Below are positions 26,332-48,700 of a stretch of 64,000 nt of DNA, in pieces; positions within the stretch are counted from its first letter, which is position 1; every line of letters starts with the position of its first letter. The stretch is from Stylophora pistillata. Taxonomy: Eukaryota. The position numbers were made by a program, and so were the translations under genes. Below the pieces are notes generated by a model. That model was not told the DNA's origin. It did no database searches and saw only the letters and a program-made list of their open reading frames with translations. Location of the stretch: assembly GCF_002571385.2 (NCBI RefSeq), contig NW_019218121.1, positions 198,242-262,241 on the forward strand. The letters are read 5' to 3'.

Positions 26332-27739
26332 CTATGAGTGCTGTAGTCTCAGAAGACGTTCTGTTTTGCCACCTCCCTGTGTTTCACTCAGCCATTCCTT
26401 GCAAGGAAACTCGTATACACGACCATTCTCGTCTTTAACTGTTACCTAGGAAACAAGAAAAAAATTACGAGGTAAATAAACCACCTGGAGTAACTTTACA
26501 TTCTGGGTTAAAAAAGTAATAAGGTAATTTGGTAATATCAACTGAGTTGAAATTGTAAATTGGCCACCGTAAAGAGTGAAAAAGCTGACGTTTCGAGCGT
26601 TAGCCCTTCGTCAGCTTCTTCAGAAACTTACCCCCTTTAAAAAAGTAATTCATTGATTGCAGTGATTTTGCTTTATTATTCTTAATTCTGGTCTACGTAA
26701 TTTGAGTCATTATTTTGATGAAACAGATGCAAAAACTTAGACCAATCTGGATAAGTCACGTATGTTATCCTCATCGAGACATTTTCATGCATTTACTTTA
26801 CTTCTGACCTATTTTGGGTTTTGTTTTTTCTAAAGACAGTCGCAAAGGGCTCTGAGATATGAATGAAGAGGCATTCCTTTCCAATAGAACCTTGTTCCTT
26901 ACAAAGAAATAAAGCTGAATTCTTTGGACCAATATTAATAAATCCTTAGGAAAAGTTATTACGGAGAGATATATCAAAACGAACATCTTTCTCGTTTCAC
27001 CTCACACTTTCTATATGTTCGCGAGGCTACTCTTTTCAGGATAAACAGAGTTAATTTAAAAATGGATTAAACTTTAGATTGTTGTCTTCGATAGATGATT
27101 TCCAAACTTGTATCGTGTTTTTCAAGTGGGTGATTATGCTGAGGAAATGATAGATAACTGTGTCCGTTCCTCATCGTAACAAAAACAAGCATGTATATCA
27201 CATGACCGTGGCGATTATGGAAGAATGGCGGCTATTTCTTTAGAGGATGGACAGTGTTAAAAAAGACCACACTTTTTCTCACTGCTAATGTCATAGTAAG
27301 AATTTCATTTGTTCCTTTGATCGAAATAAGCTAGATCAAATTTAATTAAAGTACAATGCAATTAAATAGATATCAAAACACTGTAAAGGTTCTCGCACCT
27401 TTTGCAAAAACCAGCTGGGAGTTGTTCCTGAGTTATCGTGAAGAATTCTAACTTGCCTCAGCTTACCAAGATCAGGTAAGACAAGAGTATTTGTATCATT
27501 TCTGAGAGAGAAAAAAATTTAATCGTTTCAACATTATTGATTCAAATGGATCGTTTCTTCCTTCCTAAAAAAGGACTATTTCGTTAAGACTTTGACTCAC
27601 TTTCCCCTTGAAAAATGTGTAGTGTCCAGTTTCCTAAATCCGGAGTCTCCCTTCTCTCCATATAAGGTTATGTACACCTTAGCATCTGTGTCGGCGCCTT
27701 CGACATCTCCAGTTAGCGTGGTTACAGTGTAGTTGGTAC
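26332..27739 (-). CDS. C-terminal PLAT/LH2 domain (last 3 exons of the giant gene)
   Basis: YTVTTLTGDVEGADTDAKVYITLYGEKGDSG...DLGKLRQVRILHDNSGTTPSWFLQKVTVKDENGRVYEFPCKEWLS. Confidence 0.92.
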
Positions 27740-45700: not shown

Positions 45701-48700
45701 TCACAGTGATACAATATAATTTAGATTCTAGCATGAAAAACGAGTGAAGGTGAAAAACTTGACCTTCCCATTTTCTTTAGTACCAGAAAGGTCTCTCTCC
45801 GCTCGGCCATGCATACCGATTAATGGAAAGCCTCTTCAGGCTAATACGTGTCACTTCCTTGAGTCACTGTAATCCTCAGCTGAACGATACAGAAATACTA
45901 TATCAATTAGGTCATTTTGAACCGCTCTTTTCATCAAGAGAGGCTTGTCTGTGTTGATGTTATAGTTATCAAAACTGGCGTCAGAAATGACATAAGTACT
46001 AGCTGGGAATTATCACGGCTCTCTCACCGGAATGGCTTCCAAATATCGTCACGCTTGTGTCAATGTCAGGATTCAGTAATGACTTGTTGGAGACAAATTT
46101 CTCAACCTCTTGAGTCAAAGTTGCGTCTGTTTGGAAATGAAAAATATTGAAGAAAAAAGAGCGTAAGACAAGTAACATTAGTTCTTAAGGTCTTAACACT
46201 GTTCAGAGGAAACAGCCCTTGGTAAAGAGAATGCTTTTGAATCGAGGAAAATATATGATTATCTTTTAAATTTCATGGAAATTGGCAATTCGAAGTTACT
46301 TAAAATTGTGAAATTGTTGTCGACGACAGAGGTACAGTGTTCAAGAACTAGCATCACTTACCATTAAGTGGATGATGTGGGCCCTTAGGACCTTCAAGAA
46401 AGAGCAGAGCCAATGTATAAGCCAAACACAATCTAGTAACTTATGTTCTTTACAGATTGTCTACGCTTTTTAGTTTTCTGCAGCTGTCTTTCATTTTCGC
46501 TGTATACCCCTACCGCTTTGAAAATGTGGGAAATGTTTACCTTACAGTTTAAATTTTGAAGTATTAACCCTTTGCATCCCAAAATCAGCTTTCATATTCT
46601 CCAAACTGCTCTCTTTATAGTTACTCTGTTAGAGGCAAGGGGAATTCGTTTGACAATCAAGACCTTAAATTGGTGATCATTTCCGTTATTCTCATGACCC
46701 TTGCATTTGATTCAGGGATGATAATCTTAGGAGAAATAAGAAATTTCTCACCGTTAGTGCTTAAAAGTTTAACAAATCTTGACAAGATCTCTGGGGAAAA
46801 TAAACTATAACCGCAAAATTCCTTGCTTAAAAAGTGTTATTCTAACAGGTTATCGAGAAATTAAAAAAAAATCGTTTAAAATTAGGATAAGAAAGTTTGA
46901 AAGCTTGTTTTATCATTTAAGCCAGTTTACTTACTTGGTTTTTTACAAATAAAACTAAACTGGCTCTGACATGGCTCGTCGTGCCATTTTCCAGTGCTTG
47001 TCACTATTGCGCATGACACCCCTCCATTGTTGGGTGACTTCTCGTCCCAGTTGGTGTACGAGGACGTCATACGGTCAGTCCACACCCAGTCTCCCTCGTT
47101 ATCAATGTCATTGTAGCCAATCCAAAAGTCTGATTTCAAATACACCTGAGAAAGCGTTTTGCCGTCAGTTTCACTTTCAAAGTCTAGACTTTGAATACTT
47201 CAGGGCTCGAAAAGTTGGGCCAAGGCTCATGAACTGCTGTAACTTTATTTGGTTTTAGAGGTTGCAAGTGAAGCCCTTTCGGGGTTATTAATCAAAGGCA
47301 TATTTATTTGACGAGTGGCAATGAACTGGCGATAACCCTTACTCTTTTTCTACATTAAAAATCCTGGACAATTTTACATGTCGCGAGCGCAGGAAAATAC
47401 TTGTTTTATAGCTTGGATAAATCATTTCATGTCCCACCTGGGGCTCGGATTTTTCTATTACACTAAAAATCATTTCGAAGCTGAAAAAACTGCAACAGAC
47501 AAACCTGTGATATCATAGTCTCCTCGTCATCACTCAGTATACTTGCTAACGACGCCTGTTCGTCCATACATGATACTAGCGCATTTTCCCATGTTTTAGG
47601 TTCTTTGAAAAGTTTGTAGCATCCTCGAACTGAGTTTAAGGTCAGCTTCTTCCAGCCCTTGCCACAATCTTGAATCACAAAAAATCCTTAAATATTGCTG
47701 ATTTTTGTTATTCTTTTTTTTTTTATTACAAGCGATGGACGTGTACGACAATTTTCTACGATAAATTTTAACAAGAGATAATAACTTTTTTCTCTTGATC
47801 TCAAAGATCAAATACGACTTTTAAGCGTATCTCTCAACAGAAACCGACGACGTTTCTCCACCTTAACAAAGGAATTTTTTACAACAGCTATGTTATAATT
47901 CTTTTTAAAATACAAATCATCTTTGAAAAGTCTCCGCACTCGTGAAAATTGCGTTATATAATGAAAACTGAAATCCAATCAAAGTAGTCCAGAGTATGTG
48001 CGCTGGAAGAAGATTTAATCAGAGTTTTGTTACCTTCTGGTTTCTTCTTACAGAGGTACTCATGCGTCTGTGAGCACGATGCATCTTTCCATTTCCCTTC
48101 TTTAGAACTTAACAGTACACAGTCTCTGCCTTTGCCATGGTCGTCCTTAGCGCTACTATCCCAGTTCGTGAAAACAGACAAACTTGAATCACTCCAAGTC
48201 CATGTGCCGTCTCTGGATTTGTCCCGGTATCCTAACCAAGATTCAATGTTTGTAAAGTTTTCAATGAAACGTTGTTCATAGGCGTTGGTCACGCTGAAAA
48301 GCTCTCCGCCAAAGCCCTTGCACGTCTGATGTGCGTTGTCCCATGATTTACGTTCGAAGATCTCTTTGTAACAAAATGAACCAAAATCACCGAGAGCTCC
48401 GATCCAACCAGCGCCACATTGAAGATCTGTAAGTTAAATTACAAAAAGCGTCACTGCAACTCCTAACCTTCATCTTAAGATTCAAATTATCAATAATCCG
48501 TTCTCTGCGTGCCAAGGGACATTCCACTAACTTAAGACCATGAATTGGTTGAGAGACAACACCTAATTGATTGAATTTACGTAGCATTTATCCTGATCAT
48601 ATTTTTCACGCAACCGGTTGGGGTAAATAATGTGAGGGTTGCTCTACTGGAGCTCACTGTTTCTCCCCAGACATTTCTTGTCAAACAGATTGTTGATCCG

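Follow-up and report, generated by a model that had tools for sequence, protein, structure and literature searches.

A conserved cnidarian gene encodes a candidate proteoglycan-type scaffold with a C-terminal head of lectin-type folds

The lecticans (aggrecan, versican, neurocan and brevican) are secreted proteins with a long glycosaminoglycan (GAG)-type spacer and a folded C-terminal end that includes C-type lectin-like (CTL) and EGF domains. Agrin and perlecan are large secreted proteoglycans with Ser-Gly clusters, LamG-fold domains and alternative splicing, and polycystin-1 holds WSC, CTL and PLAT domains in one chain. Here we describe a gene of the coral Stylophora pistillata, a large part of which lies in a stretch of 64,000 nucleotides (assembly GCF_002571385.2, contig NW_019218121.1, positions 198,242 to 262,241; the whole stretch is called the window below). 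Judged from its sequence, the product would work in a lectican- or agrin-like way, yet it fails the tests of membership in the lectican, agrin, polycystin-1, mannose receptor and LOXHD1 families. The architecture is real and undescribed: querying the literature with the domain set, the locus ids and the accessions brought up no paper that describes the gene, RefSeq annotates the orthologues as 'uncharacterized' apart from one automatic label, 'C-type mannose receptor 2', and, as a first-pass annotation made from the letters of the window had supposed, the combination of domains matches no characterised family. Some of the literature queries returned only PMC6526912, which concerns thrombospondins. 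On balance, the evidence leans towards a cnidarian-wide secreted proteoglycan-type scaffold, in which a splice-tunable, GAG-bearing spacer would be joined to a fixed head that binds self partners.

The folded modules are encoded on the minus strand by 30 exons that run from 48,426 to a stop codon at 26,332 in one open frame, with AG acceptors at 30 of 30 exons and GT donors at all 29 introns. Eleven more exons lie 5' of this chain, from 59,564 to 48,748, and read in frame. The resulting model of 41 exons and 2,295 amino acids matches residues 1065-3359 of XP_022799599.1 (Stylophora pistillata) at 2,295 of 2,295 residues, which rules out chance as the source of the model. The chain at 48,426-26,332 is the C-terminal 1,637 amino acids of a 3,359-residue protein, and not a whole gene. 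Residues 1-1064 of XP_022799599.1 have no match within the window; they are placed beyond it or, in small part, within a 496-base gap. Pfam finds Lectin_C twice, Laminin_G_3, PA14 twice, EGF, WSC and PLAT, in that order, and the full chain reads CTL-CTL-LamG-LamG-PA14-PA14-LamG-acidic Ser-Gly linker-EGF-WSC-PLAT-stop (Table 1). The second LamG module has no Pfam match when taken alone; the first and second both model as jellyrolls (predicted local distance difference test score, pLDDT, 76; predicted template modelling score, pTM, 0.66). The Pfam series and the open frame bear out the domain order and coordinates that the first-pass annotation had proposed. Its statement that the domains are joined by phase-1 introns is right for the module boundaries, where 13 of 13 introns checked are in phase 1, but does not extend to the chain as a whole, in which only 17 of 29 introns are in phase 1, with six in phase 0 and six in phase 2. 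As it had also noted, the chain has no membrane attachment of its own: the top 19-residue hydropathy across the 2,295-residue window model is 0.85, so a transmembrane (TM) segment is absent from this model, and the C-terminus is polar, so a glycosylphosphatidylinositol (GPI) tail is absent as well.

Transcripts from corals other than Stylophora pistillata agree with the expectation that the chain belongs to a single gene. A spliced contig from a related coral (L001) aligns in 28 blocks that are collinear with the window exons. It begins within the first CTL domain (CTL1) and carries an open reading frame (ORF) of 1,618 codons from CTL1 to PLAT, which aligns to the tail of the window model with a single one-residue gap, and so contains the 30-nt and 18-nt exons, which are missing from the blastn output. 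After PLAT, the contig has a stop codon and a 1.7-kb untranslated region (UTR), in which no ORF is longer than 62 codons. The join to the exons upstream is seen in P0001, a 1,697-residue protein from a 5,352-nt Logan contig, residues 7-61 of which match exon 48,916-48,748 before the sequence continues into CTL1. Three RNA runs (X1-X3) contain 0.20-0.31 of the words of the 44-54 kb interval, near the exon share of 0.20, and carry little weight.

Full-length orthologues were retrieved from nine cnidarians by protein searches and cluster look-ups: the corals Stylophora (LOC111337536; XP_022799599.1, PFX19914.1), Pocillopora (LOC113674731), Orbicella (LOC110043694), Oculina (LOC144644082) and Acropora (LOC114965301 / LOC141874734), and Nematostella (LOC5513456), Hydra (LOC100203426), Hydractinia (LOC130655679) and Rhopilema (LOC135693967). 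Each species yielded one locus id, with the exception of split models in Acropora digitifera. The Pfam set is identical in five full-length orthologues, and the ten folded modules are 83-100% identical to those of Stylophora in corals, 63-87% in Nematostella and 40-74% in medusozoans. The second PA14 domain (PA14-2) is the most conserved module, with 57% of its columns invariant across the nine species. Relative to L001, dN/dS is 0.036 over the 1,618-codon tail and 0-0.06 for the individual folded modules, and a tree of the nine tails, rooted at its midpoint only, agrees with the species tree (5/6 inner branches starred). With the last 760 residues as the query, a full HMMER scan returned one full-length match, the Hydra representative. 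Among 153 proteins screened for modules (the 150 best and three more), six had at least two module kinds, three of them members or fragments of the family and three with other architectures; this screen is insensitive and missed a pairing of PA14 with LamG_3 that Pfam finds in P0021. Protein searches found no match to the whole tail outside Cnidaria, and octocorals and cubozoans are absent by name from the matches. Because the screen undercounts pairings and these two groups are missing by name, presence across Cnidaria and nowhere else is how the sequences are currently best read, and is not proven. The PA14 domains are 38-39% identical to the tandem PA14 domains of P0021, and a Verrucomicrobiae protein that pairs PA14 with LamG_3 also matches.

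In the complete protein, the head is preceded by a signal peptide, a dibasic site and a ShK domain, together with a disordered stretch of about 1,700 residues, half of the protein, in which acidic Ser-Gly sites are clustered. The signal segment lies outside the window and was called in the orthologue models by a rough hydropathy check rather than by SignalP: a signal-like hydrophobic N-terminus is present in 7/9 models, and those of Orbicella and Rhopilema look N-terminally truncated. This pattern favours the secretion proposed in the first-pass annotation. A dibasic site directly follows the signal segment in five of the six orthologues examined, and the ShK domain occurs in 7/8 species. Disorder-promoting residues make up 70-78% of the N-terminal halves; the eleven spacer exons of the window (48748..59564) encode disordered, Pro/Ser/Asn/Gln-rich sequence with nine repeats of the LPPL(N/S/L/M)H type. 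An orphan unit of this repeat (57549-57472, minus strand; 87% identical to 56268-56193) lies in the intron between two spacer exons, and is possibly a cassette exon or a relic.

Ser-Gly sites in an acidic context number 5-19 per N-terminal half, compared with shuffle means of 1.2-3.9; the count exceeds all 300 shuffles in seven of eight species and ties with their maximum in Rhopilema. The SGSG motif occurs 3-8 times, against a shuffle maximum of 1-2, and is in excess in 8/8 species, and the acidic linker before the EGF domain keeps GSG or GSGS in all nine. Thus, two features of proteoglycan cores, clustered Ser-Gly in an acidic context and a signal peptide (by hydropathy, in the seven models above), are found. 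Across 69 isoform models the N-terminal half differs by up to 650 residues within a genus, whereas the tail stays at 1,606-1,656 residues; the half measures 1,216-2,407 residues in seven species groups and 537-952 in Rhopilema, and the Hydra gene has at least 30 numbered isoforms. Several microexons also occur. Optional extensions of two spacer exons, together about 440 residues, are coding in Oculina and Acropora isoforms and absent from the RefSeq Stylophora isoforms that were fetched. Between the variable stretches, short islands are conserved across a cnidarian divergence of 500 million years or more; among them, a probable helix and a DPxEY-GASM stretch are present in 6/6 species. An Atlas search with a piece of this half gave no usable match. 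The description of the protein as nearly all lectin must therefore be given up: lectin-type folds make up 80% of the tail, against 39% of the full protein, half of which, with the spacer, the ShK domain and the main Ser-Gly clusters, lies upstream.

In the N-terminal half, the motif [KR][ST]x[IVL]P also recurs, 3-10 times compared with shuffle means of 0.15-0.5. Its count is above the maximum of 500 shuffles in nine of nine sequences, and it is often preceded by a second basic residue. Repeats of this KKSxIP type fall within residues 254-1202 of P0077 and are enriched from corals to Hydra. The motif was picked after the sequences had been inspected, so the shuffle test flatters it. The simplest guess is that it marks convertase cleavage. 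The presence of a signal peptide led us to discard a reading as EB1-binding SxIP motifs. A related KKNLI stretch stands just N-terminal of CTL1 in 9/9 species.

Sugar-binding C-type lectins carry the motif EPN or QPD plus WND. CTL1 has neither EPN nor QPD and has W[KR]D for WND, and CTL2 has [SA]P[NT] and WHD, in each case in nine of nine species. Ca2+-dependent PA14 lectins depend on an adjacent Asp-Asp pair (DcisD). When the first PA14 domain (PA14-1) is aligned to 6QDI, this pair is replaced by Ser-Gln; in PA14-2, aligned to P0021, it becomes Asp-Thr, the second Asp being absent in 9/9 species. The three jellyrolls are ConA-like, and match bacterial binding modules (Z 17-20) better than the LG domains of laminin, agrin, perlecan and neurexin (Z 11.6-14.9). 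They match domain 4 of AbnA (Z 17.2-17.3, root-mean-square deviation (rmsd) 3.2, 182-189 residues aligned) and sialidase CBM40, and their top matches are the H-CN domains of clostridial neurotoxins (Z 17-20, 12-17% identity), which, on these models, we read as a shared ConA-like fold without toxin meaning. The PLAT domain is nearest to those of coral 8R-lipoxygenase and 5-lipoxygenase (Z 17.0, rmsd 1.6, 109 residues aligned). These replacements suggest that the lectin-type domains are mostly not lectins in the textbook manner, and the multivalent glycan binding envisaged in the first-pass annotation is doubtful because the canonical CTL and PA14 motifs are absent.

How does this architecture compare with the systems described above? 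With the lecticans it shares the putative secretion, the long GAG-type spacer and a C-terminal CTL and EGF, and the aggrecan CTL is among the sequence matches to the CTL pair. However, Pfam finds no Ig or Link module at E 0.01 in five of five full-length orthologues, the chain ends in EGF-WSC-PLAT and lacks the Sushi domain of the lectican EGF-CTL-Sushi end, and its ten modules stand in another order, with ShK, PA14, WSC and PLAT in addition. Agrin and perlecan are similar in size, probable secretion, Ser-Gly clusters, LamG-fold domains and alternative splicing, but the cnidarian jellyrolls are Laminin_G_3 only in Pfam and match LG folds less well than bacterial jellyrolls, and follistatin, laminin-EGF, SEA, LDLa and Ig modules are absent in 5/5 full-length orthologues. 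Polycystin-1 has WSC, CTL and PLAT in a different order. Its REJ and GPS domains are missing from the same five orthologues, although, with the same Pfam library, both are detected in the PKD1-like match P0187; PKD repeats are also absent. In place of 11 TMs with PLAT after the first, the window model shows no segment above the hydropathy maximum given above and the ORF of L001 ends after PLAT, so that this terminal PLAT would be extracellular where that of polycystin-1 is cytosolic. The gene is thus distinct from polycystin-1, as had been supposed. The tandem CTL pair finds its best matches among solved structures in the mannose receptor family (E 8e-79 to 2e-33), yet that family has 8-10 CTLs to the two found here, and the cnidarian protein is without ricin, FN2 or TM. 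Finally, although the PLAT domain is 37-46% identical to LOXHD1/RP1-type repeats, those proteins have many tandem PLATs and no signal peptide, whereas here there is one PLAT stretch and a signal-like segment; unlike lipoxygenase PLATs, it is single, fused directly to WSC on a putatively secreted protein, and without an enzyme domain.

The architecture, its conservation, the enrichment of Ser-Gly motifs and the loss of binding motifs are observed, and on them a scaffold of the following kind can be built. The signal peptide, of which the segment is seen in orthologue sequences, would route the protein to the secretory pathway, and a short propeptide would be trimmed at the dibasic site. GAG chains would be attached where acidic Ser-Gly sites cluster, and O-glycosylation of the Pro/Ser/Thr-rich half is probable too, so that a long hydrated spacer would result. 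The length of this spacer would be set by alternative splicing, as the RefSeq isoform models indicate, while the head would stay nearly constant. The 1,640-residue head, with its ten folded modules, may bind self partners that do not vary, whether proteins or endogenous glycans, and mostly without canonical Ca2+-sugar sites, as its conservation and motif loss suggest, and the fused WSC-PLAT end may attach the protein to a partner on the cell surface or in the matrix. The net effect would be a space-filling cross-linker, lectican-like in action but made of different parts. Candidate locations are the mesoglea or basement membrane, mucus, the surface coat, the nerve net and the cnidocyte (nematocyst) capsule, and the protein is probably structural rather than immune.

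A bolder version of the scaffold, which we think unlikely, would make the gene a phylum-defining invention, independent of the bilaterian lecticans: the core protein, or one of several, bearing the chondroitin-type chains that we take to be associated with the cnidarian nematocyst or surface cuticle. In this version, WSC-PLAT would tether the chains to the apical or tubulating membrane; the arrangement of capsule or matrix proteins would fall to the degenerate lectin head, and splicing would tune the spacer length for each cell type.

Several observations weigh against the scaffold as we propose it. Secretion, GAG attachment, ligands, anchoring and location are deduced and not directly observed, and the KKSxIP-type motif is unaccounted for by a proteoglycan scaffold. 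Sugar binding through non-canonical sites may persist in the PA14, WSC and jellyroll folds, and one Asp of the PA14-2 pair is invariant. In the PLAT domain of 5-lipoxygenase the calcium ligands form an acidic loop; the loop Glu (F-E-R-G stretch) is kept in four of the nine species (Nematostella and three medusozoans) and replaced in the five corals. This variation weakens the membrane docking that the first-pass annotation envisaged for the PLAT end. The model from PA14-2 to PLAT is weak overall (pLDDT 58, pTM 0.33); a predicted continuous strand between WSC and PLAT is its best-predicted part, and a wide fold search with it returned no PA14 structure among the matches, which makes that search uninformative. 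Last, the Nematostella matrisome rows seen in PMC12549020 name no such architecture, where the protein could go by another name or be absent from the mesoglea. One entry in those rows, 'NvManR' (NV2.19044, cnidaria-specific), is an unverified candidate for the Nematostella gene; the portion of PMC13581030 that we consulted includes a single 'macrophage mannose receptor 1' without a link to the cnidarian gene.

Four alternatives remain to be weighed against the scaffold, besides the merging of adjacent genes. First, the protein could be a multivalent pattern-recognition lectin of mucus or the surface coat, which displays its binding modules for microbial or symbiont glycans on a mucin-like stalk. 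Eight modules do have lectin-type folds, the jellyrolls resemble carbohydrate-binding modules (AbnA domain 4, sialidase CBM40), WSC and PA14 domains bind glycans in fungi and bacteria, and the spacer is Pro/Ser-rich. Yet canonical Ca2+ and sugar motifs are absent from both CTLs and both PA14s, and one slowly evolving locus per species (dN/dS 0.036) is a poor fit to microbe or symbiont recognition, which the first-pass annotation had suggested, since immune lectin families tend to expand. The gene also occurs in species that have no algal symbionts, such as Nematostella and Hydractinia. We therefore consider this role unlikely, although it survives better than the other alternatives.

Second, and a shade less probable, the protein could be a granin-like polyprotein of the secretory granules of neurons, gland cells or cnidocytes, from which convertases would release the ShK piece, short conserved peptides and the head. 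The excess of the [KR][ST]x[IVL]P motif, frequently with another basic residue in front of it, would suit such processing, as would the alternation of conserved islands with variable stretches, the ShK domain, the many numbered Hydra isoforms and the microexons. Apart from the post hoc choice of the motif, this reading must contend with a scarcity of strict RR/KR/RxxR sites in corals (2-3 in five of the six coral N-terminal halves with a full or near-full start) and with the failure to see, by eye, a repeated amidated peptide. It also overlaps with the proteoglycan scaffold, because GAG-bearing granins exist.

Third, a soluble protein descended from a PKD1-like ectodomain, partner to a polycystin-type mechanosensory complex of the hair bundle or cnidocil, would explain why WSC, CTL and PLAT recur in polycystin-1, why the PLAT domain matches that protein (E 4e-11) as well as the RP1/LOXHD1-type repeats, and why the PKD1-like P0187 has similar LamG_3 domains. 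It is improbable, given the differing domain order, the lack of REJ, GPS, PKD repeat and TM, and a PLAT domain that matches lipoxygenases equally well or better. Fourth, the putative secretion, the acidic patches and the 83-100% conservation among scleractinians would suit a protein of the coral skeletal organic matrix, but the gene is also conserved by four cnidarians that have no skeleton (Hydra, Hydractinia, Rhopilema and Nematostella), so a skeletal role, raised in the first-pass annotation, cannot be ancestral; the accessions turned up neither in the main text of PMC7115838 nor in five supplementary files of PMC9532382, which are weak negatives because other ids may be in use there, and this alternative is very improbable. 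Finally, that several neighbouring genes have been read as one is already largely refuted: a separate gene does lie within one intron, the Acropora digitifera models are split and the transcripts come from other corals, but the unbroken ORF of L001, the join of the last spacer exon to CTL1 in P0001 and full-length models in nine species leave it almost no room.

A 3,000-4,000-residue, putatively secreted protein encoded by a single slowly evolving locus from corals to Hydra probably has a basic role in the cnidarian body, and such conservation combined with such neglect should surprise specialists. If GAG chains are attached, the gene would supply a named core protein for cnidarian glycosaminoglycans, and the lectican design would have evolved twice. 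The extracellular PLAT predicted here, fused to WSC, and the two degenerate PA14 domains under strong constraint are binding units that await an explanation. The automatic label 'C-type mannose receptor 2', which could lead coral studies to class the gene as an immune lectin, stands to be corrected. Orthologues in three genetic models (Nematostella, Hydra and Hydractinia) make these ideas testable now.

Table 1. Features of the gene and its surroundings, in positions of the window.
Feature	Position	Strand	Basis or remark
Part of the gene in the window, 41 exons	26332..59564	-	XP_022799599.1 residues 1065-3359
Spacer exons 1-6 of eleven	59564-59358, 57909-57781, 57246-57151, 56944-56627, 56435-55989, 54206-54009	-	In frame, XP_022799599.1
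Spacer exons 7-11 of eleven	53422-53301, 52541-52458, 51321-51220, 49708-49604, 48916-48748	-	In frame, XP_022799599.1
Optional in-frame extensions of two spacer exons, ~440 residues	54207..55988 (to 55557 and from 55100)	-	30-55% identity to Oculina/Acropora isoforms
C-type lectin-like domain 1, one exon	48034..48426	-	Without EPN/QPD; WKD replaces WND
C-type lectin-like domain 2, two exons	46935..47668	-	SPN replaces EPN, WHD replaces WND
Linker, 30-nt and 99-nt exons	46028..46391	-	Exon model
LamG_3 / ConA-like jellyroll 1, four exons	43643..45502	-	Pfam, fold match
ConA-like jellyroll 2, three exons	41999..43382	-	Fold match; 33% identity with jellyroll 1
PA14 domain 1, two exons	40072..41359	-	Pfam; Ser-Gln replaces Asp-Asp pair
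PA14 domain 2, three exons spanning a 4.5-kb intron	34047..39679	-	Pfam; Asp-Thr replaces Asp-Asp
Nested antisense single-exon gene, 255 residues	35299..36063	+	In PA14-2 intron, separate from the protein
Linker exon, 39 nt	33601..33639	-	Exon model, L001
LamG_3 / ConA-like jellyroll 3, three exons	31074..32993	-	Pfam, fold match
Acidic Ser-Gly linker; exons 30668-30591, 30324-30253, 18-nt microexon 29800-29783	29783..30668	-	Candidate GAG attachment site
EGF domain, one exon	29030..29146	-	Pfam
Basic linker exon	28642..28755	-	Exon model
WSC domain, one exon	28030..28356	-	Pfam; modelled last strand runs straight into PLAT
PLAT domain, three exons, and stop codon	26332..27739	-	Pfam
Putative 3' UTR	23583..26331	-	L001 end maps to 23713-23583, AATAAA at 23608; 81% identity over 131 nt

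The nested antisense ORF is a real conserved gene. Five of 16 related loci (L007-L011; 52-61% identity) also carry it, immediately upstream of the last PA14-2 exon and opposite to it in strand, with dN/dS of 0.23-0.28 in the four loci tested; no Pfam family matched it above the cut-off, and the Atlas leads, TEX33 and MACIR, are weak (scores up to 0.78). A calcium-binding EGF-type exon at 61270-61458 (plus strand) borders the 496-base gap and is flanked by inverted copies of a 200-270-base repeat; it may represent another nested gene, or a stretch inverted in the assembly, within the upstream intron. Downstream of the gene, a tandem duplication of about 11.5 kb (2166-12433 and 12437-23693, 86-93% identity) overlaps the last ~110 bases of the putative 3' UTR, so that the predicted UTR end is also copied at 12418-12323. 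The duplication includes a single-exon gene on the minus strand, whose product combines a long extracellular portion and a Cys-rich stretch with 6-7 hydrophobic segments and has only a weak match, to DUF7630; the copy at 18541-14984 has an in-frame stop at codon 787, and the copy at 6902-5121, which starts at a 14-base gap, is open over the 589 codons read. Within the putative 3' UTR, a 36/72-base tandem repeat occupies 24879-25096.

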